Of a stretch of DNA of 64,000 nt, positions 21,681 to 61,042 are shown piece by piece. Numbering within the stretch: position 1 is the stretch's first letter; each line of letters begins with the position of its first letter. The notes under the pieces were generated by a model, which saw only the letters and a list, made by a program, of their open reading frames with translations, was not told the DNA's origin and did no database searches. Location: NCBI GenBank assembly GCA_964016885.1, contig OZ024742.1, forward strand, positions 357,554,001 through 357,618,000. Reading direction: 5' to 3'. The position numbers and the translations under genes are program-made. The DNA is from Eledone cirrhosa. Its lineage: Eukaryota.

Positions 21681-21725
<45 letters not shown>

Positions 21726-21726
<1 letters not shown>

Positions 21727-22010
21727 TAATTTAATATATCTACTAACATAAGCGCACAGATGTACGCTAATGCCAGCAAATACACAGGTTATGTCATAGT
21801 ACCTAGGTGGTTCAATGCAGGAGGATGCAGAACAATAATATAAAAGACGTAAAATAAGAAAATAAAAAAAATAAAAAAATAAAAAAAATTAACTTACTTA
21901 AATTTTCACTCCAACTAATTAGTTTCTGCAATGGGATAAAGACAGTTACGTAATGAACTGTTGAGAATTTCATTGCGTCATCAGGGAGATCTATTCTCAG
22001 CCAAGTCTCA
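21726..22010 (-). mobile_element. Partial copy of the 548-bp HHR module (38.5-40.6 kb family), with an internally deleted HHR
   Basis: Matches 38515-38788, including ctccaactaattagtttctgcaatg...cattgcgtcatcagggag. Confidence 0.85.
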
Positions 22011-26920: not shown

Positions 26921-27636
26921 TACAAATAAATTATCGAGAATCGGAACTTCGGCCCAGGAAATAACGAAACACAATCTTCGAAATGTGCGGCAAAGTGCTC
27001 AATGCTTCGGATAAACCAGAGCTATAACTAACGTTTAATACCAACACACTGAGATGATGCTTAAACAATCATTCGCACAGCAAAAAATACGACCAAGAAA
27101 ATTCGGGTCAGACAAATAAAAATATATATGAATGAAAAATTTACCCGGACCCCCTGGAAAGATGGTAAATTCCAGCATTTGGGTTTCTGCGGCTCCTAAA
27201 TGAGTTACCGTCAGCCTACATAAAGAATATCCGGCATCTGGTAAGAAGATGAACAAGGAAGTCACTTTTTCAGCAGGCGTTTAGTTCAATAATAATACAG
27301 GGGAAGACCGTTACTAAATCCACGTGGGGACCAGCAAGGGAGGGAACCCCTATATTAGGCGAATGAATTCAGTTGTGTATATTATTGTAAGAATACAAAA
27401 TATCACAAATCGAATTAGAGTTCTCAACAGACGGGTTAAAATTAACATGAGCTATTCATCAGTCAATAGGATCAACTAAAAAATCAATAAAATTAACTGA
27501 TCAATAGCTAGAGACTGGAGATAAATACAAATAAATTATCGAGAATCGGAACTTCGGCCCACGAAATAACGAAACACAATCTTCGAAATGTGCGGCAAAG
27601 TGCTCAATGGTTCGGATAAACCAGAGCTATAACTAT
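26921..27636 (-). mobile_element. Retrozyme-like module, 605-bp unit, about 1.2 copies; diverged relative of 20596-21441
   Basis: 26921-27033 is repeated at +605. HHR at 27143-27278 (GCCTG-CTGAAAA-A-GTGAC...GCCGC-A-GAAA-CCC...GGG-TC-CGGGT). Confidence 0.8.
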
Positions 27637-27676
27637 ATATATAGTTATAGCTCTGGTATATAATATATATAATATA

Positions 27677-27730
<54 letters not shown>

Positions 27731-27744
27731 TATATATATATATA

Positions 27745-30700: not shown

Positions 30701-31632
30701 CCTGCATAATGACAACAGTTCTTCCTTTGTCCGCTTCTTTAATTATAATGTCCGTATTGTTTTTTAGTTCATGGATAATCTCCCATTCCCTTCGACTCGT
30801 GTTGAGTTTGGGTTTAGGTTGCGGTAGTTCATGGTATCGGAAAGTAGCTATGTGGTCACAGAATTTTTCCAGAGCTCTGTTTCTACCTTTTGTTGGGTTG
30901 CTTTTATTCCGTACAATTGATTCGTCGTTATTCTCCTTGTCAAAGAATTCCTCTGAGAGACGTAATTTTCTACAGAAGTGTGAGATATCGTCATTTATCT
31001 CATTGGGGTTAGAGTATTGTGGTGTTAGTGTGAATTTCAGTCCTTTGGAGAGAATATTTACTTTTGGGGCTGAGAGGTTTTTATTTGAAAGGTTGATTAA
31101 TTCGGTTTTTCAAAATCGTTTTATGCCACCGGGTGTCGTGGGTCCTGTAGCCTTGGTCTAAAAAATGATTTTTCGGGAATGTTTTTTCAATGGTATTATT
31201 ATATCTAATGGTATTTCCCCTGTTGTTGTGTGGTCTTGTATAGATGTTTCGGACGTATTGAGGTTCAGTTTGTTGATAGTCCGGGTTGTAGATTTTGTTC
31301 CTTTGTGTGGGTTGGAAATTTATTATAATTAGTGACCAACCAATCAAATTACTTCTCGAAAAGCCTGGCATTTCGAGCCACTTTCTCCATATAAAACAAG
31401 TAACAATTCAGAGACCAACCAGATGTCAGAAAAACCACAGACCCTCTATCTCAACTCTACTTTTGAAAAGCAGAAGAGCTGCGAAACCGGTAAAGGAACC
31501 AAATAAATATATATATATTTTTTAAAATAAGACTCCAGTTGCATTTTCGATTTCATCTTTTTTTCTTTATACTTTCACTCGTGTAGGACACCTCGGTTAT
31601 GTTTCATTTTGTTAAAAAATCCCTCACTTTCT
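27745..31632 (-). mobile_element. Decayed Penelope-like element (RT + Zn-linker + GIY-YIG) with an inverted pseudo-LTR
   Basis: LSKGLKFT, RYLDDCL, FPFLDI, CGRSNCGTC, LLYAIKC..YIGQT (28868-29383). 27745-27987 is inverted at 31320-31570. Confidence 0.93.
27814..27853 (-). ncRNA. Minimal type I hammerhead (U3-A8) in a PLE pLTR; second copy at 31458-31497 (+)
   Basis: TTCTT-TTGAAAA-GCAG aagaa CTGC-GAAA-CCGG-TA-AAGGA, with a palindromic CCGG stem III. Confidence 0.8.
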
Positions 31633-31645
31633 AATATATATATAT

Positions 31646-34210: not shown

Positions 34211-34250
34211 TATATATATATATTTATACATATATATATATATATATATA

Positions 34251-34992
34251 GAAAGATTTGAATGGATACAGTTTAGTTGAAAGGAATTTATTGACACGTG
34301 TTTCTGTAACAGTTACATAACCTAAAACAGCTATCTACAAACTTTTAGTTATGCAGACATTCAATATTTCAATGTTATTATTTACTGTCATTTCATCAGA
34401 ATAATATTACTGAGGACCTATTTAGTTTTTATAGAGAATATTAGGAGGGAGGGGTGAAGTTGTTAGAAGAATAGTTGAAGGAGTGGTTTTTCGATAGCAG
34501 TGAGAATTCTTGGTGGCAGTGAGTAATTAGATTCCCATCTGTTGTTTTGACATTTTTTATGGAATATATTATTGGTTATTTTTCTAAATCTATAGAAGGA
34601 TTAGAGATAGTAAAGATATGCGTGGTTGGTTTTGTGTTTGCACTTAACATTCAGACTTAAATTTTTCTTTCAAGTGTACGTATTCTTTCACCCACGCATT
34701 CACACAAATATATTTGCACACCTCTACAAAATACATATACTCATAATTCACATATTCATACTTACATACATATACACATGCATACACATATATATACACA
34801 CATGTATTCATGTACATACATACGCGCTCATGTGTATACATTTTCATACTCAACTTATCTTTATATATACACACGTATAGACACACACATATATACATAC
34901 ATACTCTAGTCCATGTGTACACACATACGCATACATACACATCCACATACACATACATACATACACATATATATATATATATATACATACAC

Positions 34993-35061
<69 letters not shown>

Positions 35062-35759
35062 CATATACCCACACACACACATATACACATACACACATAT
35101 ATATATATATATAAGCACTTTAATACATGAATACACTTACATCTAACTATAGGCATTCTTACTCAATAAAACACCAGAGCCAAAGAAATGTAACAACTTT
35201 AGCAGAAAAAGCTTGGACGCTCAGGGATAGCAATCAAAAGTTTACCCTAAAATGGGAGAAATTAGCTAAAACCCAAAGCTTTTCCAGGAGCCAAAATTTC
35301 TGCAAATTGTGTAATCTTGAGATTTATTACATAATCACACACAAGAAGAAACTGCTGAATAACAGAATTGAACGAACATTATTCTGCCGTCACAGAACTA
35401 AAACCCTTTTTTCCCACTACAAGCCGAATATTACATAAAAGAGGGACATCCCCCAACTATATAAACCTTAATCTAGTTAGAAAAATATAAAAACAATCTC
35501 TTCTCAACATATATTAATAACCTTAAATTACCATACTAATAATGAAAAGATATGCTGATGAGAATAGGTACAAATATGCGATAATGAATGTGTCTAAAAA
35601 CGTCCATAAGTATGTATATATATGTGAAAATGTATATAAATAAGTAAATATATATATATGTTTGATGTGTATAGTTAGATGTAAGTGTATTCATGTATTA
35701 AAGTGCTTATATATATATATATATGTGTGTATGTGTATATGTGTGTGTGTGGGTATATG

Positions 35760-35828
<69 letters not shown>

Positions 35829-36680
35829 GTGTATGTATATATATATATATATATGTGTATGTATGTATGTGTATGTGGATGTGTATGTATGCGTATGTGT
35901 GTACACATGGACTAGAGTATGTATGTATATATGTGTGTGTCTATACGTGTGTATATATAAAGATAAGTTGAGTATGAAAATGTATACACATGAGCGCGTA
36001 TGTATGTACATGAATACATGTGTGTATATATATGTGTATGCATGTGTATATGTATGTAAGTATGAATATGTGAATTATGAGTATATGTATTTTGTAGAGG
36101 TGTGCAAATATATTTGTGTGAATGCGTGGGTGAAAGAATACGTACACTTGAAAGAAAAATTTAAGTCTGAATGTTAAGTGCAAACACAAAACCAACCACG
36201 CATATCTTTACTATCTCTAATCCTTCTATAGATTTAGAAAAATAACCAATAATATATTCCATAAAAAATGTCAAAACAACAGATGGGAATCTAATTACTC
36301 ACTGCCACCAAGAATTCTCACTGCTATCGAAAAACCACTCCTTCAACTATTCTTCTAACAACTTCACCCCTCCCTCCTAATATTCTCTATAAAAACTAAA
36401 TAGGTCCTCAGTAATATTATTCTGATGAAATGACAGTAAATAATAACATTGAAATATTGAATGTCTGCATAACTAAAAGTTTGTAGATAGCTGTTTTAGG
36501 TTATGTAACTGTTACAGAAACACGTGTCAATAAATTCCTTTCAACTAAACTGTATCCATTCAAATCTTTCTATTTTTCTCCGGATTACTTTTGGAACTAC
36601 AACTGGAACCGTCGAGCAAACTCTACGTGAGCTGATAATCTACTGTGTGTAATATTTATATTACAACACAACGGAAAATA

Positions 36681-36684
<4 letters not shown>
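34251..36684 (+). mobile_element. 5'-truncated PLE: GIY-YIG C-terminal remnant, 3'UTR and a 900-bp inverted copy
   Basis: 35147-35438 encodes TLAEKAWTL..KWEKL..CKLCNLE..LLNNR..CRHR. 34251-35150 is the reverse complement of 35671-36570. Confidence 0.85.
36417..36533 (+). ncRNA. Type I hammerhead with canonical core and long stem II; mirror copy at 34288-34404 (-)
   Basis: TTATT-CTGATGA-aaTGACAGT...ACTGTTAca-GAAA-CACGTG-TC-AATAA. Confidence 0.82.
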
Positions 36685-36728
<44 letters not shown>

Positions 36729-36734
<6 letters not shown>

Positions 36735-37380
36735 ATACTTTGGGAGGGTCATGTTGCCAATAAGAAACACACGCACCAGTGTTTTCACTTCAATTTATTA
36801 TATATTTATAAATTTATAAATTTATAAATTTACAAATCTACAAACTTATAAATTTCTGGTTGGTTGGTTGGTTCCACAACCAGATAGTTGTTTATATATA
36901 TAGTCATAGTCCTTTCGTCAGACACTCTGTGACCTCTTCAGTGACTGGGGATTCCTTTCTTCGTTTCTGTGCCTTTCCTTTCTTCTATCCTACGCCATTT
37001 TGTTTCTGTGTGTGACACACACACAGTGTGTGTGACACACACAGAAACAAAATGGCGTAGGATAGAAGAAAGGAAAGGCACAGAAACGAAGAAAGGAATC
37101 CCCAGTCACTGAAGAGGTCACAGAGTGTCTGACGAAAGGACTATGACTATATATATAAACAACTATCTGGTTGTGGAACCAACCAACCAACCAGAAATTT
37201 ATAAGTTTGTAGATTTGTAAATTTATAAATTTATAAATTTATAAATATATAATAAATTGAAGTGAAAGCAACTGGTGCGTGTGTTTCTTATTGGCAACAT
37301 GACCCTCCCAAAGTATAACAATATCGGTTTCAACACACGATTTCAGATAAAGAATCTTGCTAAACAAATTCAGAAACGAA
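36729..37380 (+). mobile_element. PLE 3'-end fragment as a palindrome with arms of about 295 bp; HHR at 37104-37148 (+) and 36902-36946 (-)
   Basis: Inverted arms centred near 37025; AGTCA-CTGAAGA-G-GTCA..TGAC-GAAA-GGAC-TA-TGACT. The tail (atgaccctccc.aagtataacaata..acacacgatttca) is shared with 54605-54680. Confidence 0.85.
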
Positions 37381-37649
37381 ATATATATATATATATATAT
37401 ATTATATTATATTTAGAGTTGTAAACTCAAACAGTCTTTTACGATTAATTAGCTCAAAGAAAGAAGCATTTATGAGCCGTGAAATACAAGTCAATATAAA
37501 TTAATATATGATAAACACAAAAGTGTTTGTATTGTAAAAGACGAAGTTAGCTAGAATGAAATAAACTAATTCAAATAAAAATATAGATTGCCAATCTCGA
37601 TCTAATCTAATAAATCAATAATAGCAAGCCCATATTGGCAAATAGCCGT

Positions 37650-38432: not shown

Positions 38433-38511
<79 letters not shown>

Positions 38512-38515
<4 letters not shown>

Positions 38516-40566
38516 ATATATCTACTAACATAAGCGCACAGATGTACGCTAATGCCAGCAAATACACAGGTTATGTCATAGTACCTAGGTGGTTCAATGC
38601 AGGAGGATGCAGAACAATAATATAAAAGACGTAAAATAAGAAAAATTTAAAAAAAAATTAAAAAAAATTAACTTACTTAAATTTTCACTCCAACTAATTA
38701 GTTTCTGCAATGGGATAAAGACAGTTACGTAATGAACTGTTGAGAATTTCATTGCGTCATCAGGGAGATCTATTCTCAGCCAAGTCTCCAGGCAATGCGC
38801 GGACACTGGGTACTCATATAAAAATAATAATAATTCGGTAAATGGAACAGCTATCGAGGACTGGATTCCAGGCACCGAAAATTCTCACTGCCACTGGTCA
38901 AATGGCCGATTCTAAAGAATCAATCACGTGACACAGAGGCTAGTCAGTAGGAATGGGATGGTAAGATGACAGACGCCTACTAACACCCCCAGACAAATTT
39001 AGAAGTGGTTTGGGCAGGTTTGCTCGACAAATCATTGATTTGGAGGTAAATATAGATAATTTAATATATCTACAAACATAAGCGCACAGATGTACGCTAA
39101 TGCCACTTCTAAATTTTTTGGGGGGTGTTAGTAGGCGTCTGTCATCTTACCATCCCATTCCTACTGACTAGCCTCTGTGTCACGTGATTGATTCTTTAGA
39201 ATCGGCCATTTGACCAGTGGCAGTGAGAATTTTCGGTGCCTGGAATCCAGTCCTCGATAGCTGTTCCATTTACCGAATTATTATTATTTTTATATGAGTC
39301 CCCAGTGTCCGCGCATTGCCTGGAGACTTGGCTGAGAATAGATCTCCCTGATGACGCAATGAAATTCTCAACAGTTCATTACGTAACTGTCTTTATCCCA
39401 TTGCAGAAACTAATTAGTTGGAGTGAAAATTTAAGTAAGTTAATTTTTTTTTAATTTTTTTAAACATTTTTCTTATTTTACGTCTTTTATATTATTGTTC
39501 TGCATCCTCCTGCATTGAACCACCTAGGTACTATGACATAACCTGTGTATTTGCTGGCATTAGCGTACATCTGTGCGCTTATGTTAGTAGATATATTAAA
39601 TTATCTATATTTATCTCCAAATCACTGATTTGTCGAGCAAACCTGCCAAAACCACTTATAAATTTTTTTGGGTGTGTTAGTAGGCATCTGTCATCTTACC
39701 ATCCCATTCCTACTGACTAGCCTCTGTGTCACGTGATTGATTCTTTAGAATCGGCCATTTGACCAGTGGCAGTGAGAATTTTCGGTGCCTGGAATCCAGT
39801 CCTCGATAGCTGTTCCATTTACCGAATTATTATTATTTTTATATGTGTCCCCAGTGTCCGCGCATTGCCTGGAGACTTGGCTGAGAATAGATCTCCCCGA
39901 TGACGCAATGAAATTCTCAACAGTTCATTACGTAACTGTCTTTATCCCATTGCAGAAACTAATTAGTTGGAGTGAAAATTTAAGTAAGTTAATTTTTTTT
40001 TTTTTTTTTTTTTTTTCTTATTTTACGTCTTTTAGATTATTGTTCTGCATCCTCCTGCATTGAACCACCTAGGTACTATGACATAACCTGTGTATTTGCT
40101 GGCATTAGCGTACATCTGTGCGCTTATGTTAGTAGATATATTAAATTATCTATATTTATCTCCAAATCACAGATTTGTCGAGCAAACCTGCCAAAACCAC
40201 TTCTAAATTTTTTTGGGTGTGTTAGTAGGCATCTGTCATCTTACCATCCCATTCCTACTGACTAGCCTCTGTGTCACGTGATTGATTCTTTAGAATCGGC
40301 TATTTGACCAGTGGCAGTGAGAATTTTCGGTGCCTGGAATCCAGTCCTCGATAGCTGTTCCATTTACCGAATTATTATTATTTTTATATGAGTCCCCAGT
40401 GTCCGCGCATTGCCTGGAGACTTGGCTGAGAATGGATCTCCCTGATGACGCAATGAAATTCTCAACAGTTCATTACGTAACTGTCTTTATCCCATTGCAG
40501 AAACTAATTAGTTGGAGTGAAAATTTAAGTAAATTTTTTTTTTTAATTTTCTTATTTTACGTCTTT

Positions 40567-40567
<1 letters not shown>
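38512..40567. mobile_element. Retrozyme-like array: about 1.1 units (-) joined to about 2.7 tandem units (+) of 545-549 bp
   Basis: Unit offsets of 549 and 545 (39236/39785/40330); 38512-39104 is in the reverse orientation. One HHR per unit. Confidence 0.9.
39344..39423 (+). ncRNA. Type I hammerhead with canonical core, extended stem II, palindromic stem III (copies about 38688-38767 -, 39893-39972 with U4C, 40438-40517)
   Basis: CTCC-CTGATGA-C-GCAATG...CATTGC-A-GAAA-CTAATTAG-TT-GGAG. Confidence 0.85.
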
Positions 40568-40599
<32 letters not shown>

Positions 40600-40604
<5 letters not shown>

Positions 40605-40930
40605 AACACACACAGAGAAACAATATGGCGTAGGACAGAACAAAGGACACGCACAAAAACAAAGAAAAGAATTCCAGTCAGTGAAGAGGTCACAGAAAGT
40701 GTGAGGAAAGAACTTTGACAATATATAAACAACCATCTGGTTGTGGAACCAACCAACCAACCGGAAATTTATAAATTCCTAAATGTATAAATTTATTATA
40801 ATAAATTGAAGTGAAACAACTGGTGCTTGTGTTTCTTATTGGCAACATGACCCTCCCAAATATAACAATATCGGTTTCAACACACGTTTTCAAATAAAGA
40901 ATCTTGCTAAAAAATTCAGAAACGAAATAC
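40600..40930 (+). mobile_element. Diverged copy of the 37030-37380 PLE 3' end with a mutated HHR
   Basis: agtca-GTGAAGA-ggtcac..GAAA-GAAC-TT-TGAC and the shared tail. Confidence 0.8.
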
Positions 40931-41034
40931 ATATATATACTTCTTACGTTAATTATTTTCCAATTTGACGTTATAGTCACTTATACATTATGAAATACTG
41001 TTGGCTTCACGCTCACAATAATTTCTATACTTTC

Positions 41035-41125
<91 letters not shown>

Positions 41126-41282
41126 AAAGAATAGAGGTGTAACACATAAGTTATTATATATTGGTAAACGGAATAGAAAATGCTGACAAATTGTTCACAG
41201 TTGAAAAATGGTTTAATTAGAAATACAATAGTATTAGTGATTGTATGGGTTAGTATTCAGTTGTGGTTTTAAGTTTTTAAGT

Positions 41283-41319
41283 TTTTACCGGTTGCGCATT
41301 TCTAAATGCTTTTCAAAAA
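41283..41319 (-). ncRNA. Minimal hammerhead-like motif with U3-A8 and GCAA in place of GAAA (copies 46145-46181, about 57626-57662)
   Basis: TTT-TTGAAAA-GCATT taga AATGC-GCAA-CCGG-TA-AAA; same layout as 27814-27853. Confidence 0.65.
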
Positions 41320-41672
41320 TAATTTTGAGATAGAGTGTCCGTGCTGTTTGCTCTGATCTGATTAGTTTTGGGAATTCTACCTGTTTTTATGTTAAAAAAG
41401 TGGCTCCAGCGTTATTTTTGTGTTGCAAAAATGCTTGTGGTCAAAACAATTTTGATTGGTCGGTAGAGGTCATGTGAATGTAAAAAGTTGATTTTGCGCC
41501 AAGACTGTTTTTATGTTAAAAAAGTGGCTCCAGCAAAAATTCTTGGTCAAAACAATTTTGATTGGTCGGTAGAGGTCATGTGGATAAAAAATTGGTTTTG
41601 CGCCAAGATTGAGAAATGACTCTTTCACAACAAATATGTGTGTGTGTGTATGTGTGTGTGTGTGTGTGTGTC

Positions 41673-41725
<53 letters not shown>

Positions 41726-41807
41726 AGTAGTAGTAGTAAGGTGTTCGATGCTGCGACAATGGCCAGCAGCGATGTGTGTCAAATGGCTATTAAGATAAGT
41801 GTGTGTT

Positions 41808-41854
<47 letters not shown>

Positions 41855-42359
41855 CAGAGTAATTCGATGGTCAGTAACAATGTGTCTGAAAGCAATGGGG
41901 GGTATTTTAGCATGTCAAAAGATATTTTCAGCTTTTGTCTTATACGGAGAAGTGCGTGTGTGTGTGTGTGTATAAGTCTCTTTGTATGTTGATGTACGCG
42001 TGTGTATGTGTTTGTGTATATATGTGTGTGGGGGGGGGGGGCAGTATTATTTTCCCCCTGGTAAAATGGTGTACATTATTCGATTTTTTCAGTAAAATCG
42101 GTTCTCTTAATAGAACATCAAAAATCTTAACAATAAAAGGTGTGAAATGATATTCACTATATATATATACACATACATATATTCACTACATATATATATA
42201 TATATATATATACATATATACATACATATATATGCACATATATTTCTTTGTATTGCACCATAGAGCATGTGTGTTTACGTGTGTCATTGTGTTTATATGT
42301 GGGTAGAGATGTGTGCTGATGTAGGTATGTATGTTGACGTGTGTATGTTGTGGGTTGTC

Positions 42360-44684
42360 TTAGGGAGAAGTGTTTAGACGGGGTCCGTATTTGTTAATGA
42401 AGTAAGATTCCTTGCTGAAGCGCTGGGTGTGGGTGGCATTATCTTTAAATTTGTAGAGGGGAAAGATTCTGAAGTTGGGATGATTTGGGGCGGCACAGGT
42501 ATCAATGTGTTCACTCAGTGGTATTTTCCTGTATTCCCGTATTTTAATTTGGGATCTATGGACAGTCATGCGTTGGCGGGGGCTGTTTTTGGTCTGGCCT
42601 ATGTATTGTTCTCGACAACCTGAACAAGTTAATACATATTTTAGATTTTCCGATGCACATGTGAAATTGTGTTTTACTATAAAACGTTGTCCATCTTTGA
42701 AATAGAATTCCGAACCCTCTATTAGGTTGATGCAAATGCCACAGTTGGGTCTATCGCATTTTTTTACTGTGGGTTTCGTTGTTGTGGTTGGCAGTACTTT
42801 GGCATGTGTTAAGATGTTTTTCATTGACTTGGATTGTCTTTTGCTCTTTATGATATCGTGTGTTCGTAGAATTTGGTTCATTCTATGGTCCTTTTTCAAT
42901 ACAGGGATGTTCTGGAGGATGGTGTCAAAGGCCTCATTGTTGAGGGGGTTGTGTGTGGAGATGTATGGAAGAGCTTTTAGTTTTGGTTGTTTTACTTTAG
43001 GGTGTCTAAGGTCCTTGGTACTGAGTTTTAGGGCACGTTGGATTCCATTGTCAATTAGTGATGCAGGGTAGTCCCTGCCTATGAGTGTGTCCTTTAGTTC
43101 TTGTAGCCGTAAGTAGCAGATGTTTTTATTGGAGACTATAGTACAGATTCTCTTGGCTAAGTTGTAGGGAATATTAATTTTAACGTGTCTAGGGTGGCAA
43201 GAGTTGAAGGGGAGATATTGCTTGGGGTCTGTGGGCTTGTAGTATATGTCTGTTTCTATTTTTTTGTTATGGATCTTAATGAGGATGTCGAGGAAGGGGA
43301 GTTGTTGATGGATGTATTCCATCGTGAAGTTAATATTTGTGTTGAGCCCATTTATAAGGGTGTGAAATTCTTTAAGTTTTTCGATGTTTTCGTGCCAAAG
43401 GATGAAGCAGTCATCTAGATATCGCTTCCAGTTCCTTTCAATGTGTAAGTGGAGGGTGTTTCCAAATTTGTTTAGGACTTTAGTGTAGAGGGTGATTTCC
43501 AGGTATCCCATGACTAGGTTGGCATAAGTAGGGGCTGTTTTCGTTCCCATAGCGGTCCCAGATTTCTGCCTGTAGGGTTTGTTATTGAAAACGAAGTAAT
43601 TGTTCTCCAAGATAAATTTGAGTCCCTCTATCACGAATTCTTTTTTGATGCGTTGTGGGAGTTCATTGTGGAAATTATCCAGCCAGAATTGGATAGCTTC
43701 TATTCCTAGGTTGTGGGGGATGTTGGAGTATAGGTTGACTACATCGAACGTCACTAGTAGGGTTTGTTCAGAAAGTGACATATTAGGGAGGTGATTGAGC
43801 ATATCTAGGTCGTCCCTTATATAGCTTTTGATGTGCTTGAGGAAGGGTTTGAGAAGGGTATCAATGAAGTTGCTAAGACGGTGCGTTTCGCAAGCGGGGC
43901 CTGCTATTATAGGTCTTAATTTGAGATCATTGGGTGAGGGGACATTGATGACTATGCCTGTGGCTTCCTTGCATGCCTTACTTATTGATTCGCTTTTATG
44001 TACTTTAGGGATACCGTAGAAAAGGCTGGATTTACTTGTGAAGTCTGTGATGAAGCTGAATTCCTTGTTAGTGAGTCCTTCTTTGTATTGGTTGATTAGA
44101 GTTTTTAGGTTTCTCATAATTTTCTGTTGATTGTAGTGTTCAGCCTTTTCGTAGTATGTTTCGTTTTCCAAAGTGGAGAGCGCTAAGTTGATATAGAATT
44201 CTGTCTCCATTAGGACTACTGTACTCCCTTTATCAGCCTCTTTAATTGTAATGGTTCTGTCGGTTTTTAATCTATTTAATTCTTCCCCTTCTTTCTTGTT
44301 GAGGTTTGGCTTGTGTTTTTGTCTGTGCAAGTGTTGGTAAGGGAAGTTTGTGATGTGTTCACAGAATTCGTCCAGGATTTTATTTCTACCTTTTGAAGGG
44401 GTGTAATTGCTTCTATTTCTGGCTAATGATTCATCCTCATTGTACTGGTCGAATAGTTGTTCACTAAGTCGTAACTTTCTACAGAAGTCTGTGATGTCTT
44501 CCTTCATTTCATAGTAGTTAGGACGTAGTGGGGTCGGTGTGAATTTAAGACCTTTGGAGAGTAAGTTGATAAGGTTGGGTGTTGGTTCTGCACTAGTAAG
44601 ATTGATAATTTTTATTACTATCGGTTTCTCCTCCCTGTCTTGTGTTATTTTGTTTGCCTGTATCTGTGTGCTGTGTCTAAAAAA
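42360..44684 (-). CDS. PLE ORF2: reverse transcriptase + Cys-rich linker + GIY-YIG endonuclease
   Basis: Uninterrupted 715 aa from the ATG at 44507. The frame stays open upstream through IINLTS..LLSKGLKFTPT to the slippery site. Motifs: IKEADKG, YGIPKVHK, LRPIIA, FDVVNLYSNI, GTAMG, RYLDD, LPFLD, CDRPNCGIC, LKYVLTC..YIGQT. Confidence 0.95.
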   Translation of the reverse strand, partial: FFRHSTQIQANKITQDREEKPIVIKIINLTSAEPTPNLINLLSKGLKFTPTPLRPNYYEMKEDITDFCRKLRLSEQLFDQYNEDESLARNRSNYTPSKGRNKILDEFCEHITNFPYQHLHRQKHKPNLNKKEGEELNRLKTDRTITIKEADKGSTVVLMETEFYINLALSTLENETYYEKAEHYNQQKIMRNLKTLINQYKEGLTNKEFSFITDFTSKSSLFYGIPKVHKSESISKACKEATGIVINVPSPNDLKLRPIIAGPACETHRLSNFIDTLLKPFLKHIKSYIRDDLDMLNHLPNMSLSEQTLLVTFDVVNLYSNIPHNLGIEAIQFWLDNFHNELPQRIKKEFVIEGLKFILENNYFVFNNKPYRQKSGTAMGTKTAPTYANLVMGYLEITLYTKVLNKFGNTLHLHIERNWKRYLDDCFILWHENIEKLKEFHTLINGLNTNINFTMEYIHQQLPFLDILIKIHNKKIETDIYYKPTDPKQYLPFNSCHPRHVKINIPYNLAKRICTIVSNKNICYLRLQELKDTLIGRDYPASLIDNGIQRALKLSTKDLRHPKVKQPKLKALPYISTHNPLNNEAFDTILQNIPVLKKDHRMNQILRTHDIIKSKRQSKSMKNILTHAKVLPTTTTKPTVKKCDRPNCGICINLIEGSEFYFKDGQRFIVKHNFTCASENLKYVLTCSGCREQYIGQTKNSPRQRMTVHRSQIKIREYRKIPLSEHIDTCAAPNHPNFRIFPLYKFKDNATHTQRFSKESYFINKYGPRLNTSP

Positions 44685-45955
44685 TGGTTGGGGTAGAGGG
44701 GTTGTCTGCTGATGTTAAGTGGTCTCCTGTGTTTGTTATATTCCTTGTTGTTGTAAAATGTGGTTCGGGTTGGTGGTTGTAGATTGAATGGGGTGTTCCT
44801 GTACTGCGAGTATGGGTGTGTGTTTCTATGTGCCATGTTGTATTGTGGTGTTATAAGTGGCCTACATTGTTCGTTGTATCGTGTGGTGTGGGTTTGTTGT
44901 GTATTGTGGAAGTGAGAGTTGAGAAAATGGTAATTACCTTGCTGTCCCCTTGAAGCGGGGAAGTTGTTGCATCTATCATGGCGGTGGTATCTTTTCCCTA
45001 TGTTTGACGATGAGGAATCCGCGTAGTAGTTGAGTGATTTGGTATGGTGTCTCCTTGAAGGGGGAAAGTTGTAAATGTCATTCTGGGGGAGATGATTTCT
45101 TGGGTTTTTGTTCCTTCTTATGGTAGCGAGGTTGGGAAGTTCATCTTCGGTGTGGTGCTTCCTTCTTCGTTTGTTTGAGGCTTGGGGGTTTGAGAAGTTG
45201 TTGTGCGGTTCAGTTATGGGTTTTCCTATTTTTATGAACGGGTTATTGGAGGTGTAATCCGTTTGAAAAGTCGATTCATAGTGTAGGAACCAAGCGGCAC
45301 TTTTTTCCCAGCGTTGAAGGGATTTCAGTTCTTCTCTGTTGCAGTCCCCTTTCCATAATTTGGAGATCTTCTCTACCTTGGGGCCTTCAGTTTTGTTGTT
45401 GATTTCCAGGAGGATCTCTTCATCGATGGTTTTGATTTTTTCCTCGTTTGTCTGGGACCTCAGTTTAAGAAGTTCAATTTCTGTCTTCATTTTTTCCAAT
45501 GCCATTCTTTCCCTAAGGTGTCTTTGAGGTCCGGGTTCATTTGGAATGGACTTTATTTGTAGTTTACGGGGGAGAGTTAGAGGGGTTGAGTTAAGCCATT
45601 TTTCATATATCTCTGCTTTGTTGTGATTTTGTATCATCTTCCAGAATGAGAACTTTCTGTCTCTGAGGGATTTGTTCCATTTTGGAATTGTTCGAATTTT
45701 CATTTTGTGTGAATCAATCTCACATGGTTCTTCGTTGGTTTTTCCTGGGTTGGTAGTAGTGAACATAGTTTGGATAGTATCGCAAAGGTTTTGGAGTTTG
45801 TCGCCGATTTCGGAGGGTTTGTATCCGGTGGCGGTTTCCTTATTTGTGGAGTCAAGTTTGTCGACCAGCAAAGATAGGTTGGTGTTGATTTTCTTGAGTT
45901 CCTGTAGGATCTCTTCATTTGAGTTGATGAGGGTTGTATCCGTTTTTGTTGGCAT
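44645..45955 (-). CDS. PLE ORF1, about 436 aa: coiled-coil N-half and a basic, N/H/R-rich, probably disordered C-half
   Basis: Uninterrupted ORF (ATG of MPTKTD at 45955) directly downstream of the pLTR. Heptad-like ILQELKKINTNLSLLVDKL and ALEKMKTEIELLKL. Confidence 0.8.
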   Translation of the reverse strand: MPTKTDTTLINSNEEILQELKKINTNLSLLVDKLDSTNKETATGYKPSEIGDKLQNLCDTIQTMFTTTNPGKTNEEPCEIDSHKMKIRTIPKWNKSLRDRKFSFWKMIQNHNKAEIYEKWLNSTPLTLPRKLQIKSIPNEPGPQRHLRERMALEKMKTEIELLKLRSQTNEEKIKTIDEEILLEINNKTEGPKVEKISKLWKGDCNREELKSLQRWEKSAAWFLHYESTFQTDYTSNNPFIKIGKPITEPHNNFSNPQASNKRRRKHHTEDELPNLATIRRNKNPRNHLPQNDIYNFPPSRRHHTKSLNYYADSSSSNIGKRYHRHDRCNNFPASRGQQGNYHFLNSHFHNTQQTHTTRYNEQCRPLITPQYNMAHRNTHPYSQYRNTPFNLQPPTRTTFYNNKEYNKHRRPLNISRQPLYPNHFLDTAHRYRQTK

Positions 45956-46498
45956 TTTCTGTATCTCGTGTGAGGATATGATAGTTAAAAGAATAGAGGT
46001 GTAACACACAAGTTATTATATATTGGTAAACGGAATAGAAAATGCTGACAAATTGTTCACAGTTGAAAAATGGTTTAATTAGGAATAAAATAGTATTAGT
46101 GATTGTATGGGTTAGTATTCAGTTGTGGTTTTAAGTTTTTAAGTTTTTACCGGTTGCGCATTTCTAAATGCTTTTCAAAAATAATTTTGAGATAGAGTGT
46201 CCGTGCTGTTTGCTCTGATCTGATTAGTTTTGGGAATTCTACCTGTTTTTATGTTAAAAAAGTGGCTCCAGCGTTATTTTTGTGTTGCAAAAATGCTTGT
46301 GGTCAAAACAATTTTGATTGGTCGGTAGAGGTCATGTGAATGTAAAAAGTTGATTTTGCGCCAAGACTGTTTTTATGTTAAAAAAGTGGCTCCAGCAAAA
46401 ATTCTTGGTCAAAACAATTTTGATTGGTCGGTAGAGGTCATGTGGATAAAACATTGGTTTTGCGCCAAGATTGAGAAATGACTCTTTCACAACAAATA

Positions 46499-46595
<97 letters not shown>

Positions 46596-46615
46596 TAGTA
46601 GTAGTAATGTGTTCG

Positions 46616-46872
<257 letters not shown>

Positions 46873-51596: not shown

Positions 51597-51637
51597 TATT
51601 TAATTATGTCTCATATAACTTACTTACTTAAGTTTCA

Positions 51638-53086
51638 TTGTTAGCTATCGTCAGCAACGTATACCTTCCTGCCAGATTGTTGAAAGTCCGAAAGTATATA
51701 CTTACCTTATGCATATTAAATGCTGAGTAGCCCAATTTGCATATCGAGTGGGTTAATCGGCCGGGTGCACCGAAAACGATAAACTGAAAAAATGAAACGA
51801 AATTTCATTTCCCACGCTTAGTACGGCTGTTACTTAAAATAAGTATGTATACGTACATACATATATGTATACAGACGTACAGTAGTATGTATATATATAT
51901 ACATACATGCACACATATATATATGTACGTATGGATTCACCGAACATTTATTATAATGCTCGGTGTGTTTGTAAACAAACACCCCGTATTAAGCCGCAGT
52001 GTCTAGCAACCACCGTTGCTCGTTTGTTCAACACTGACAAAGGAACGCTGTACTAGTTTCAAGCTTGTTAGCTATCGTCAGCAACGTATATCTTCCTGCC
52101 AGATTGTTGAACGTCCGAAAGTATATACTTTCCTTATGCATATTAACGGCTGAGTAGCCCAATTTGCATATCGAGTGGGTTAATCGGCCGGGAGAACCGA
52201 AAACGATAAACGGAAAAAATGAAACGAAATTTCATTTCCCATTCTTAGTACGGCTGTTACTTAAATATAAGTATGTATACGTACATACATATATGTATAC
52301 AGATGTACAGTAGTATGTACGTACGTTCAACAATCTGGCAGGAAGGTATACGTTGCTGACGATAGCTCACAAGCTTGAAACTAATACAGCGTTCCTTTGT
52401 CAGTGTTGAACAAACGAGCAACGGAGGTTGCTAGACACTGCGGCTTAATACGGGATGTTTGTTTACAAACACACCGAGCATTATAATAAATGTTTGGTAA
52501 ATCCATACGTACATATATATATGTCTGCATGTATGTATATATATATATATACATACTACTGTACGTCTGTATACATATATGTATGTACGTATACATACTT
52601 ATATTTTACGTAATAGCCTTACTAAGTGTGGGAAATTAAATTTCGTTTCATTTGTTCCAATTATCGTTTGCAGTGCACCCGGCCGATTAACCCACTCGAT
52701 ATGCAAATTGGGCTACTCAGCCGTTAATATGCATAAGGAAAGTATATACTTTCGGACGTTCAACAATCTGGCAGGAAGGTATACGTTGCTGGCGATAGCT
52801 AACAAGCTTGAAACTAGTACAGCGTTCCTTTGTCAGTGTTAAACAAACGAGCAACGGTGGTTGCTAGACACAGCGGCTTAATACGGGATGTATGTTTACA
52901 AACACACCGAGCATTATCATAAATGTTTGGTGAATCCATACGTACATATATATATGTGTGCATGTATGTATATATATATACATACTACTGTACGTCTGTA
53001 TACATATATGTATGTACGTATACATACTTATATTTAAGTAACACCCGTACTAAGAGTGGGAAATGAAATTTCGTTTCATTTTTTTC

Positions 53087-53090
<4 letters not shown>
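51638..53090. mobile_element. Retrozyme-like array: about 1.6 units (-) then about 1.8 units (+), unit 427-433 bp
   Basis: Offsets of 427 (51641/52068) and 433 (52351/52784); orientation switches near 52322. HHR CGTTG-CTGACGA-T-AGCT aaca AGCT-T-GAAA-CTAG-TA-CAGCG is intact at 52046-52086 (-). Confidence 0.88.
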
Positions 53091-53147
<57 letters not shown>

Positions 53148-54710: not shown

Positions 54711-55618
<908 letters not shown>

Positions 55619-55845: not shown

Positions 55846-55920
<75 letters not shown>

Positions 55921-55924
<4 letters not shown>

Positions 55925-56931
55925 GACGTAAATAAGAAAGTTATGAAAATTGACTTACTAAAATTTCACTCCAACTAATTAGTTTCTGTAAGGGGATAAA
56001 TATGGTTACGGAGCGTATCCATAGAGAAGCCTTACGTCATCAGGGAGTCTATTCTCAGCTAAGCTTCCAGGCAATGCGAGGACACTGGGAACTTATATAA
56101 AAATAATTCAGTGGATGGAAAAAAGCGAGCGGGGACTAGATTCCAAGACATTGAAAATTCACTGCCTACTTGGTCAAGTGGCAAATTCAAAAGAATCAAT
56201 CACCTGACACTGAGGTTAATCAGTGAGGATTGGGGGTGCTATTAAGACAGGGCCTAGCCACTACTATTAATCATAGTAGTAATTTCGGCAAGTTTTGCTC
56301 AGAACCACAAGTTTTGCATAGAACCACAAAGTTACTAAGACAAAACATATTTATTTGCTAACATAGGTATGCATCTGTATACATATGTTGGTAGATATAC
56401 TAATTCTTTATAATTTTCTCCAAATTATTTGTTGAGCAAAACTTTCCGAAATTACTACTATGATTAATAGTAGTGGCTAGGCCCTGTCTTAATAGCACCC
56501 CCACTCCTCACTGATTAACCTCAGTGTCACGAGATTAATTCTTTTGAATTTGCCACTTGACCAAGAAGGCAGTGAATTTTTCAATGTCTTGGAATCTAGT
56601 CCCCGCTCGCTTTTTTCCATCCACTGAATTATTTTTATATAAGTTCCCAGTGTCCTCGCATTGCCTGGAAGCTTAGCTGAGAATAGACTCCCTGATGACG
56701 TAAGGCTTCTCTATGGATACGCTCCGTAACCATATTTATCCCCTTACAGAAACTAATTAGTTGGAGTGAAATTTTAGTAAGTAAGTCAATTTTCATAACT
56801 TTCTTATTTACGTGTTTCATATAATTGTTCTGCATCCCCTTGCATAGAACCACAAAGTTACTAAGACAAAACATATTTATTTGCTAACATAGGTATGCAT
56901 CTGTATACATATGTTGGTAGATATACTAATT

Positions 56932-56935
<4 letters not shown>
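55921..56935. mobile_element. Diverged subfamily of the 548-bp module (526-bp unit, inverted + direct); HHRs at 56687-56767 (+) and 55968-56048 (-)
   Basis: catagaaccac at 56317 and 56843. ACTCC-CTGATGA-C-GTAAGG...CCTTAC-A-GAAA-CTAATTAG-TT-GGAGT. Confidence 0.85.
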
Positions 56936-57009
<74 letters not shown>

Positions 57010-57447: not shown

Positions 57448-57475
57448 CCTTTATGTATGTATATATATATATATA

Positions 57476-58020
57476 TTTAAAAGAATAGAGGTGTAACACA
57501 CAAGTTATGATATATTTGTAAACGGAATAGAAAATGCTGACAAATTGTTCACAGTGAAAAATAGTTTAATTATGAATAAGTGATAATTAGTAATAGTATT
57601 GGTTAGTATTAAGTTTTGGTTTTAAGTTTTACCGGTTGCGCATTTCTAATGCTTTTCAAAAATAATTTTGAGATAGAATGCCCGTGATGTTTGCTCTGAT
57701 CTGATTAGTTTTGGGAATTCTACCTGTTTTTATGTTAAAAAAGTGGCTCCAGCGTTATTAAAATAAGTTTTGCGCCAATTCGTGTTGCAAAAATTCTTGT
57801 GGTCAAAACAATTTTGATTGGTCGGTAGAGGTCATGTCAATGTAAAAAATTGATTTTGCGCCAAATGTAGGTTAGGTGTCGGCTGACTGAGAAATAAGTC
57901 TAACAAATATGTGTGTGTGTGTGTGTGTAGTAGTAGTAAAGAGGTTTGTTGTTGTGATAATGGTCAGCAGTGATGTGTGTGCGAACCGCAGCCTGTTGAC
58001 AGTTCAAATGCCTATTAAGA

Positions 58021-58091
<71 letters not shown>

Positions 58092-58428
58092 CAGAGTAAT
58101 TCGTGGTAGAGGGATGGTCAGTAGGAATGTATTTGTAAGTGTGTGGGGGATATTTTAACATGTTAAAAGATATTTGTTCAGTTCTTGTCTTATACGGAGA
58201 AGTGTGTGTGTGTGTGTGTGTGTGTATGTCTCTTTGTACGTTAATGTACGCGTGTGTATGTGTGTGTATATATATATGTGTGTGTGTGTGTGTGAGAGAA
58301 TGTGTGTGTGTGTGTGGGTGGATCAGTATTTATTTCTGTTAAAATGGTGTACATTATTCGATATTTTCAGTAAAATCGATTCTCTCAATAGAACATCAAA
58401 AAACCTTAATAATAAAAGGTGTGAAATG
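57476..58428 (-). mobile_element. 3'UTR/pLTR-only copy of a relative of the 41.1-kb Penelope
   Basis: Collinear with 41123-42150. Confidence 0.88.
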
Positions 58429-58557
58429 ATATATAGTATTGGCATAATACCAAGGCGTGTGTCAGTGTGTCCAGACCGCACGTACTCCAAGGGTGATCCA
58501 TTAGGCCTTGCCGTATTGGAATACCTGTGCACAAATATGTATCTGGAGTGTGTCCAG

Positions 58558-58663
58558 AAATTGTATACCCGTGCACAAATTGTATACCCGTGCACAAATT
58601 GTATACCCGTGCACAAATTGTATACCCGTGCACAAATTGTATACCTGTGCACAAATTGTACAC
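58558..58663. repeat. 19-bp tandem repeat (aaattgtatacccgtgcac) x about 5.5
   Basis: Direct periodicity, flanked by two copies of atgtatctggagtgt. Confidence 0.9.
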
Positions 58664-58674
58664 ATGTATCTGGA

Positions 58675-58739
<65 letters not shown>

Positions 58740-58760
58740 CAGATATATATATATATATGC

Positions 58761-58813
<53 letters not shown>

Positions 58814-58815
<2 letters not shown>

Positions 58816-59663
58816 GTAATATGAAATACGTCCTTTCACGCACAAGGCGCCAAGGTACGCATGTATTGTCCAACCAAGTGCCAGTGTGGTTCAATGGCGG
58901 GTTAATAAATTAACGAGCCAGAACAAATATAAACAAGGTTTAGTAAATAATGAAAAAGTTTCAAAAAAAATTTTAAAAAATTGACTTTACCTACTATAGT
59001 TACCTTTACCGATCGGTTTCGAATCCCAAAAATAAAACGTAGGCCATACGGCCTTCGTTGCAAAGAGAGATTCTCGTCAGAAGGTTCTTTTCATTCAAAG
59101 AATATAAAATTCCTGAATTTAAATCACAAACTAGCGCTATCAAAGACTGCTCCTGGGATGAGAGTGGATGATGTAGAACAGGTTTATCAAGGGCCGTAGT
59201 AAAGATAGAGGCAAAAGGAGGTAGGTCAAACTAGCCACCGCTGTTATCAGCAGCAGTCGGAATGACCCGGTTTGTTCTCAACGTTTGTGGAGGTAGTAGT
59301 AATATGAAATACGTCCTTTCACGCACAAGGCGCCAAGGTACGCATGTATTGTCCAACCAAGTGCCAGTGTGGTTCAATGGCGGGTTAATAAATTAACGAG
59401 CCAGAACAAATATAAACAAGGTTTAGTAAATAATGAAAAAGTTTCAAAATAAATTTTAAAAAATTGACTTTACCTACTATAGTTACCTTTACCGATCGGT
59501 TTCGAATCCCAAAAATAAAACGTAGGCCATACGGCCTTCGTTGCAAAGAGAGATTCTCGTCAGAAGGTTCTTTTCATTCAAAGAATATAAAATTCCTGAA
59601 TTTAAATCACAAACTAGCGCTATCAAAGACTGTTCCTGGGATGAGAGTGGATGATGTAGAACA

Positions 59664-59669
<6 letters not shown>
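58814..59669 (-). mobile_element. Retrozyme-like module, 483-bp unit, about 1.8 near-identical copies with two intact HHRs
   Basis: 58814-59186 is repeated at +483, with (TA)n on both sides. Confidence 0.92.
59002..59085 (-). ncRNA. Canonical type I hammerhead (second copy at 59485-59568)
   Basis: ACCTT-CTGACGA-GAATC..(AACG..AGGCC gtat GGCCT..CGTT)..GATTC-GAAA-CCG at CGG-TA-AAGGT. Confidence 0.9.
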
Positions 59670-59703
<34 letters not shown>

Positions 59704-59759
59704 TAAGTACACATTCATACATATATGTACACAGACGTACACTAGTATGTACCAGAGGA

Positions 59760-60800
59760 AAAGGCTGATCTTCAGGCATTTGCTGCCAGCTCAGCCAAAG
59801 ACATAGGCGGTGTTCCCCCAAAGGGTGCTCTACGCCTTGGTCAACCTGGTCCAAAACCCAGACTCAGGCTGTCTTTTTCGGACCCTGCTGAAGAAGGACC
59901 GCTCTACAAAATGTCATGGCTCCAAGCCAGAATACTTAAACCCATACTAGACACCTTGCCGGGACTCGTAAACAGCTCCGAGAAAGTGTTGGCGCGCCTG
60001 CATCAAATGGATCCCGACACCAGAAAGGCTCACATTTATGCCTTCAGCCTTGATGTGGTCGCTCATTACACCTCGGTCCCGGCGCTTGCGGCCTTTCATA
60101 TACTAATGGAACGCGTTCAATCTACCGACCTACACTGCTTTGGGTTCACCCCCACTGACAATCACCTGCTCCTATCCGTCATCGTTGACAACACTTATTT
60201 TGGTTTTCTCAACCAAACATACCGGCAAACTCAGGGCTGCCCATGGGCTCAAGCCTGTCGGGTGTGATAGCGCTCTCATACATGGACGGCCTCGAGCGCA
60301 AGGCACTCAACACCTGCCACCCCAGCGCCGTCGCTTTCTTCTCGAGGTACGTGTACGACATCCTCATCCTCACATCTTCTCAGGAGATGGCAAGCGGAAT
60401 TTATGAGACGTTCAACAACACGGAGGAGAATATTGATTTCAGTGTTGAACACCCCAACGACGACGGGTCCCTTGCCCCCCTCGACGTCCGAATCAACATC
60501 ACGGAGCAGGGAGGGATCCACACCAACTTTTAGCACAAGGCAGCCTACAGGGACTTGTTCGTCCACTACAAGTCTGCCCTCGCTAACAGTGCTAAAAGAG
60601 GGTACATCACGAACGAGATCACGCGAGTTAAAAACAGATGTAGCGATACCGTGAGTGGTGTCACCTATACCAAGCGGTTCCTAATGGTGCTGGAGACGAA
60701 TGGATACCCAGCCTCGCTTACAAACAGAGTAAGAGACACCAGACGCAAGAGGCAGAGAAACACCCAAGGCAAGTGCTTCCTTAAAATCCCGCACCTGGGT
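59760..60800 (+). pseudogene. GC-rich PLE reverse transcriptase fragment from a different lineage
   Basis: FSLDVVAHYTSVP, YRQTQG/PMGSSLSG, RYVYDI (mutated YVDD), LAPLDV, HYKSA. Frameshifted. Confidence 0.85.
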
Positions 60801-61042
60801 GTCATGAAAAAAGCACCCAGTTCACACTCTGATGTGGTCATGTAGGTGTCATGAAAAAAAGCACCCAGTCCACACTCTAATGTGGTCATGTAGGTCTTAT
60901 GACAAAAAGCATCCAGTCCACACTGTAAGTGGTTGTGTAGGTGACATGACAAAAAGCACCCAGTCCACACTGTAAAGTGGTTGTGTAGGTGACATGACAA
61001 AAAGCACCCAGCGGACATGCTAGCGTGGAACATGGACGTTAA
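60797..61042 (+). repeat. Tandem repeat of about 44-49 bp (x about 5) within an RTE 3'UTR fragment ending in (GAT)n
   Basis: catga.aaaaagcacccagtccacact..gtggt..tgtaggt units, followed by catgctagcgtggaa..ggacgttaa. Confidence 0.8.

Follow-up and report, generated by a model that had tools for sequence, protein, structure and literature searches.

The two hammerhead ribozymes found close together in this stretch of the Eledone cirrhosa genome are parts of one insertion, 1.8 laps long, of a young and non-coding family of non-LTR retrozymes. The locus is an ordinary copy, and it is the family rather than the locus that makes open questions testable. Based on the variants, ends and arms of its insertions, we think it likely that the family is spread by a Penelope-like reverse transcriptase (RT) and endonuclease that would copy a circular RNA of 483 nt into a cut TA microsatellite.

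The hammerhead pair and its insertion

In the window (the whole stretch of 64,000 nt that was analysed), the hammerheads lie on the minus strand at 59485-59568 and 59002-59085, where a preliminary description had placed them 483 nt apart. Comparison of the sequences confirmed this, with the H17 adenosines at 59490 and 59007 and 84/84 nt identical between the two. Both are type I hammerheads of the same sequence, with cuts predicted after 59490 and after 59007, and both contain the elements previously reported, namely the CUGACGA/GAAA core, the G10.1-C11.1 pair, a 5-bp stem I (ACCUU/AAGGU) and the GUA triplet. Stem II consists of 7 bp and a structured loop of 39 nt that itself contains a hairpin, while the 3-bp stem III lies inside a perfect 10-nt palindrome (59491-59500, with a second copy at 59008-59017, minus strand), the predicted dimerisation helix, for which a self-duplex of -16.6 kcal/mol is predicted. 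The pair had also been called canonical, a term that holds for the core but not for the rest, because no Rfam hammerhead model matched and no contact between loop I and loop II could be recognised. The Rfam search of the window returned no matches at the gathering score and no hammerhead among 18 weak matches at E<=5, and these weak matches were TA-repeat noise.

The whole insertion is a single arm of 857 nt on the minus strand (58814-59670) that comprises 1.77 laps of the 483-nt unit, from m303 to m193 in a numbering (m1-m483) in which m1 is the base right after the cut, at 59489. The monomer predicted to be excised and circularised occupies 59007-59489 on the same strand. Directly past the cut there is a predicted hairpin at m11-64 (59426-59479, second copy 58943-58996, minus strand), conserved above the level of the unit body, which is a candidate enzyme-binding element. 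It is followed by the short end site at m73-80 (59410-59417, second copy ending at 58927, minus strand), the putative priming site 1 and the commoner 3' end in the family, which the window arm reads through without using. A 108-nt tail, m81-188 (58819-58926, minus strand), separates this site from the long end site at m185-193 (58814-58822, minus strand), the putative priming site 2, which forms the 3' end of the window insertion and abuts (TA)n. The target tract has its left part at 58678-58813 and its right part at 59671-59701. At the 5' junction, 8 nt on the plus strand (59665-59672) match the short end site, possibly as a minimal second arm joined via a 6-nt microhomology, and the 6-mer concerned occurs once in the monomer.

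As the preliminary description had it, the laps are nearly identical, with two differences (59633/59150 and 59450/58967) over the 374 nt that they have in common. Its view of the pair as the youngest-looking module did not hold, since the arms of an inverted pair at 34248-36573 agree at 100% over 904 nt, and other loci of the family, such as L035, have more laps and no differences. To call the locus the best experimental entry point was likewise an overstatement, there being no promoter known at the locus and 5-9 laps at L035 and L045; its real advantage is the near-private base at 59150 (m340), a G in 2/264 unit copies examined, which would tag RNA of its monomer. Reads joining CGGUA to AAGGU and divergent RT-PCR, both proposed as tests, are not diagnostic for circles as opposed to tandem copies, because ligation restores the genomic sequence present in every hammerhead copy. 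The proposal that a 483-nt monomer would be excised and then closed into a circle is sustained for the family by haplotypes, cut-site crossings, the ribozyme core and stem changes, but not for this locus in itself. We rejected a connection of the insertion with the Penelope RT fragment at 59746-60654, as this fragment is on the opposite strand, past the TA tract and absent from other loci.

The family across the genome

The pair is not a product of chance, since a 25-nt word from the ribozyme core has 1,142 exact copies genome-wide against none for the reversed control. Exact words spanning the junction of m80 with TA were found 590 times and those for m188 with TA, in one subfamily spelling, 122 times, with no copies of the reversed controls; the family is dispersed over many contigs in at least 590 insertions. 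A DNA search of the animal's own genome (3.0 Gb), in which 40 of 1,640 candidate places were scored, gave 215 matches, and among the matches listed the retrozyme copies were 98-100% identical. We examined 140 loci in three sets. Set A comprised the window and 39 loci from the best matches listed, set B took in 44 loci found through the core word, every new place within the first 100 of its 1,142 copies, and set C took in 56 loci found through the m80 junction, drawn from the first 100 of 590. These loci contained 148 insertions, 74 with one arm and 74 with two inverted arms, at 73-100% identity and with arrays of up to 9-10 laps (L045, L108).

Every feature of non-LTR retrozymes that could be tested was present in the family. 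Complete type I hammerhead cores are present in at least two tandem units in succession, one in each; the unit of 483 nt has 39.5% GC, below 50%, is non-coding and lacks long terminal repeats; and dispersed mobile copies co-exist with autonomous Penelope-like elements. No frame of 120 aa or more was found inside the unit, and Pol III transcription of the monomer is unlikely because it contains seven runs of four or more T.

Insertion ends and arm pairing

Among 222 arm 3' ends, 131 were at m80-84, 77 at m181-196, five at m169-176 and nine elsewhere, with none at the cut. Those at m169-176 are diverged tails in which the alignment stopped early, and altogether 213/222 ends are found at TA tracts some 80 or some 188 nt beyond the ribozyme cut. 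The same two sites account for 126/135 arm ends in sets A and B, whose loci had been chosen without regard to ends. Arm pairing was similarly regular, as 69 of the 74 two-arm insertions combined a short with a long end, one was short plus short (L076), none was long plus long and four were non-standard (L088, L095, L109, L111). The short plus long pairing was seen in 41/42 classifiable cases in sets A and B (P about 1e-11) and in 28/28 in set C, and the 69/74 insertions that follow it have the architecture of Penelope-type insertions, a head-to-head inverted arm and a one-sided tail, here of 108 nt. TA tracts on both sides of 71/74 two-arm insertions mask any target-site duplication, which in non-LTR retrozymes exceeds 4 bp when present. 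Several one-arm insertions (L038, L055, L103, L114, L118, L162) carry inverted stubs, 12-50 nt long, of the long end.

Both end sites terminate in ATAT, and the predicted folds place each of them after a hairpin and leave it unpaired. Homology alone does not select the end sites, because similar TATA words at m9 and m384 were never used as 3' ends, and we infer that the ends of insertions are set by two priming sites and not by the ribozyme. In 19/69 two-arm insertions the sequence of neither arm is contained in that of the other, and the arm starts were within 20 nt of each other in 8/69 against 5.9 expected. With containment failing and arm starts unrelated, copying by fold-back fails to explain the inversion, and the arms appear to have been copied separately, from RNA. 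Starts of arms at the 5' side were mildly enriched near the cut (25/222 against 9.7 expected, seven of them at a TATA word, partly through TA microhomology), which may mean that some templates are linear or stall at this point. At L139 and L144, arms jump internally between monomer positions at short shared words, which suggests template switching.

Conservation and predicted fold of the ribozyme

Deviant calls amounted to 5/925 in CUGANGA and 1/544 in GAAA, compared with 638/12,599 in the tail and 1,763/25,348 in m189-404, counts in which related copies are not independent. On counts that are thus not phylogenetically independent, the ribozyme core is about tenfold more conserved than the rest of the unit, whose body is 5-7% deviant. 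Double, compensatory changes were found in stems I and II at pairs 408/2 (2/132), 417/469 (2/133) and 419/467 (4/133), each probably a single event. The stem III palindrome was intact in 130/136 insertions and was twice replaced by a different palindrome. These patterns suggest that the ribozyme is under selection.

A single active fold was predicted to be disfavoured, slightly (+2.1 kcal/mol) in the local context and by 5.9 kcal/mol in the circle, with predicted probabilities of stem III of 0.03-0.47 in linear contexts, and in these models cleavage likely needs a dimer fold of two ribozymes via the palindromic stem III. Conservation and fold together fit a ribozyme that cuts in multimers, as a dimer, and is quiescent in circles; both behaviours are known for such ribozymes from the accessible part of PMC4209133. 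Weak palindromic helices III that work when two pair are also a feature of the dimeric satellite hammerheads of newt and axolotl and of the minimal hammerheads of Penelope elements, as described in the accessible parts of PMC4209133 and PMC7229834; here, by comparison, helix III has 3 bp within a 10-nt palindrome, and the single fold is for this reason only mildly disfavoured. Cleavage is not guaranteed, because one of nine predicted dimers from Xenopus was cleaved in vitro, according to the part of 10.64898/2026.07.22.740005 that is accessible. Folding stability of the monomer was equivocal (z -3.4 as a circle with 60 shuffles, z -1.6 as a linear molecule with 100 shuffles).

A circular template and its alternatives

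To evaluate the template, variants were called in a young set of 82 insertions of at least 95.5% identity. Of these variants, 175 were fixed in all laps, seven were partial and 103 occurred in a single lap, while in the comparison of arms 89 were fixed across both and one was arm-specific. Variants private to a locus were likewise present in every lap (7/7 in L042, and 4/4 across both arms in L041), and 326/328 crossings of the cut site had no indel. Based on the lap- and arm-fixed variants and the clean crossings, we concluded that a new variant passes a bottleneck of one unit and is then repeated seamlessly in both arms, for which a ligated monomer circle would be the simplest source.

The mechanism that we favour would start from a read-through transcript with at least two ribozymes, which would fold jointly via the palindromic stem III and cut out a monomer. 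By analogy with the retrozymes of coral, mussel and axolotl, a host ligase would close the monomer, and the lone ribozyme in the circle would be largely inactive. The enzyme would then nick both strands of (TA)n, and these would prime on one and the same circle, one strand at m80 and the other at m188. The primers would run round the circle for variable distances to give head-to-tail laps, with the cDNA ends finally joining by microhomology. What the genome shows is laps arranged in tandem inside TA tracts, the 3' ends falling on two fixed positions, and half of the insertions have two inverted arms, a short-ended and a long-ended one. The window copy would be a one-arm product begun at the long site. 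Points that speak against this mechanism include the single short plus short insertion (L076), the Poseidon element of the anole, in which cleavage is dispensable for insertion and both strands share their start sites (PMC11167929), and the terminal repeats of the candidate drivers, to which the unit has no extended DNA similarity.

An alternative retains the enzyme and the two priming sites and replaces the circle with a linear uncleaved multimer transcribed from a few long source arrays, or with cleaved monomers joined by jumps, circles being by-products or absent. We consider this rather unlikely, although unprocessed RNA is the main substrate of the Poseidon enzyme of the anole in vitro (PMC11167929), arrays of 9-10 laps do occur (L045, L108) and some arms begin exactly at the cut (L104, L116, L154). 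A multimer template predicts that differences between laps would be inherited, whereas partial variants were few next to fixed ones (7 vs 175) and the private variants of L042 and L041 were in every lap; jumps predict noise or mixed haplotypes at the cut, where nearly all crossings were clean; and selection on the core would go unexplained if cutting were unnecessary. It is improbable that single units were inserted and later multiplied at the DNA level by tandem duplication or unequal crossing-over, with the inverted arm produced by fold-back self-priming. The accessible parts of the relevant papers discuss local amplification for vertebrate retrozymes (10.64898/2026.07.22.740005) and self-priming (PMC3846280), and local amplification would homogenise laps too. 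Yet one haplotype occupies both inverted arms, both arms exceed one lap in 14/69 insertions, fold-back is impossible for 19/69 and arm starts are asymmetric, the ends are constant at any lap number, and copies that are 99% identical leave little time for such a process.

We give very little credence to the idea that the duplication at this locus arose in the assembly or is an inert repeat due to chance. The flanking TA tracts would favour an artefact, as would the fact that no contig examined spans the whole stretch; contigs from four runs (at most two samples of one study, which is possibly the source of the assembly) contain the unit, with loose TA ends at both end sites, and have no bearing on the duplication because none spans the stretch. 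Against this reading, the laps differ at 2/374 sites, the same architecture recurs at 140 loci, and the 3' end falls on the long site of the family.

Candidate drivers

Two young autonomous families of Penelope-like elements, with open frames of 775 aa and 784 aa, are present in the genome, and no Penelope ORF (RT plus GIY-YIG between pseudo-LTRs) was contiguous with any arm at the 140 loci. The 784-aa family is represented in the window by a near full-length young element at 41115-46617 on the minus strand, in which a 455-aa frame precedes the 784-aa RT/GIY-YIG frame between 642-nt pseudo-LTRs that are 97% alike; RVT_1 was matched, and GIY-YIG fell slightly below its cut-off. This family has 112 scored copies at 98-100%, many of them with a 784-aa frame, and the two-frame layout may therefore be native. 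A broken two-arm copy of the 775-aa family at 27628-31634 ends at +79 and +145 past its hammerhead cut, and 11 frames of 775 aa were found in 10 loci at 97.5-98.5% identity. Both families carry a U3-A8 variant hammerhead, of a type described in the accessible part of PMC4209133, and in the element at 41115-46617 this variant also has GCAA replacing GAAA.

The same pairing of a short with a long end was found in both families, at +131/+167 in 13 inverted pairs of the 784-aa family (eight of them chosen for a visible pair) and at about +79/+145 in four inverted pairs of the 775-aa family. The letters around the cut and the distance of about 80 nt are common to the 775-aa family and the retrozyme, making this family the better candidate for its driver. 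No longer homology extended between the retrozyme unit and the terminal repeat of either candidate, and local alignments of the unit to three Penelope end regions scored within shuffles. A direct parent was also looked for with a 16-nt search that combined the short stem III of Penelope type with the 3' letters of the retrozyme, and this candidate was dropped, as none of the 11 matches adjoined an ORF within 1.5 kb; nine were pseudo-LTR fragments related to the 775-aa family and two were arms of a diverged retrozyme. In a separate observation, four dispersed fold-back minis of the 784-aa family, 440-470 nt long (L213-L216), share an identical junction, which suggests that a palindromic mini was itself copied as a unit.

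Neighbouring and related repeats

Immediately left of the window insertion and its TA tract, a 3' fragment of an element related to the 784-aa family (57469-58677, minus strand) begins with a 19-nt tandem repeat. A minimal-hammerhead family is present at 51631-53092, 54712-55564 and 59694-60797, and a stub of its end, joined to the Penelope RT fragment, lies directly right of the 857-nt insertion. The left fragment, the insertion and the right neighbour show that a single TA tract has received insertions repeatedly.

At 55920-56940, 38498-40571 and 21681-22009 there are two related families of hammerhead repeats whose palindromic stem III is a different one, and at least one of these families has a C-A mismatch at 10.1-11.1. 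They too form inverted pairs with a short (+60/+73) and a long (+177/+185) end and a tail start like that of the retrozyme family. In a further inverted pair, at 36727-37393 and 40596-40939, there are core words similar to those of hammerheads, and a tail of about 60 nt is present on one side. The inverted pair at 34248-36684, which contains the identical 904 nt mentioned above, has a tail of roughly 110 nt on its right arm and a spacer that by eye resembles the end of an endonuclease gene. Tandem arrays of a 48-nt repeat are located at 582-3318 (57 copies, with long open frames on both strands) and 60798-61011 (4.5 copies). Outside the window, L092:3700-4500 and L110:3200-4100 contain hammerhead repeats of a more remote family, whose similarity around the ribozyme is about 74% and whose stem III is the same or near-palindromic. 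At L153:4700-5250, the 5' end of a retrozyme arm is directly joined to a tandem repeat of 79 nt in which hammerhead-like core words occur.

An all-or-none A-to-G change

Position m436, in the stem II hairpin, was G in all laps of 13/84 multi-lap insertions (249 lap copies), and no insertion was mixed. The G state occurred on five haplotype backgrounds, three of which were also found with A, and recombination is an unlikely source because G conflicts with sites 11-14 nt away. Together with m15, for which there was one mixed case, m436 was the most homoplastic of 32 sites. The contexts of the two are AAG and UAG, in hairpins, and such contexts in hairpins are preferred by ADAR. A recurrent change at m436 that is never confined to a single lap points to a change in RNA before copying, and we treat the pattern at m436 and m15 as a lead, a hint of RNA editing fixed in DNA. 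As a general bias, editing was unsupported, only m436 and m15 standing out. The ratio of A>G to T>C was 10:4 among fixed and 6:13 among single-lap variants (P=0.037, post hoc), it was 22:14 against 9:11 in a larger set (P=0.27), and A>G sites as a class did not have raised homoplasy (P=0.19). Tentatively, the monomer circle may be A-to-I edited at the hairpin adenosines m436 and m15 and then copied by a dimeric Penelope enzyme, with one target strand primed at each fixed site, so that host editing would be repeatedly written into germ-line DNA, in all laps together; we hold this to be a real possibility, somewhat short of probable.

Relation to known elements

As far as the accessible parts of PMC7229834 and 10.64898/2026.07.22.740005 describe them, metazoan non-LTR retrozymes share with the present family a tandem repeat that is non-coding and low in GC and has a single type I hammerhead in each unit, as well as a short palindromic helix III, dispersed copies ranging from monomers to multimers, and Penelope-like elements alongside. 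In the same sources, tandem cDNA templated by a circle is a hypothesis for these elements. The unit of 483 nt compares with 170-400 nt in tested invertebrates (PMC7229834) and 51-972 nt in the 2026 survey (10.64898/2026.07.22.740005), and the family differs from the retrozymes of both sources in its 39-nt structured loop II, with no recognisable tertiary contact. Both papers show expression, and the family here was examined at the level of DNA. Their accessible text reports no fixed ends, inverted two-arm geometry, one-haplotype insertions or (TA)n targeting. In a literature search by title and opening of the abstract, near-strict pairing, single-template evidence and the editing pattern were not found for retrozymes.

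Endonuclease-bearing Penelope-like insertions, as portrayed in the accessible parts of PMC3846280 and PMC8557442, share with the family partial tandems, a head-to-head inverted 5'-truncated copy, a one-ended tail, microsatellite targets and microhomology junctions, but the family has no ORF and a tail of 108 nt as opposed to 30-40 nt. Those passages state that the tail is 'often' one-sided, crediting this to endonuclease resolution and the inversion to self-priming; by contrast, pairing is near-strict here and fold-back is excluded for 19/69. The Poseidon element of Anolis carolinensis (PMC11167929) is similar in that, in vitro, its RT starts inside the RNA at two tail-defining sites, both target strands are cut and extended, targets are AT-rich and a dimer is predicted. 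Its sites are adjacent, have no homology to the target and are not strand-specific, both strands using the same start sites, and ribozyme cleavage is dispensable for insertion in vitro (PMC11167929), whereas here the sites are 108 nt apart with ATAT ends matching the target, one is used per arm, and the core appears to be under selection.

How animal retrozymes move, and why Penelope insertions show an inverted arm and a one-sided tail, are open questions in the accessible parts of PMC7229834, PMC8557442 and 10.64898/2026.07.22.740005. The family yields sharp predictions on these points, namely a circular template, two mapped start sites with one per strand and a (TA)n target, and with two intact candidate enzymes in the same genome these predictions are testable in a published in vitro assay. 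Should the all-or-none switch from A to G indeed be editing, the family would provide a countable case of RNA editing made heritable by retrotransposition.
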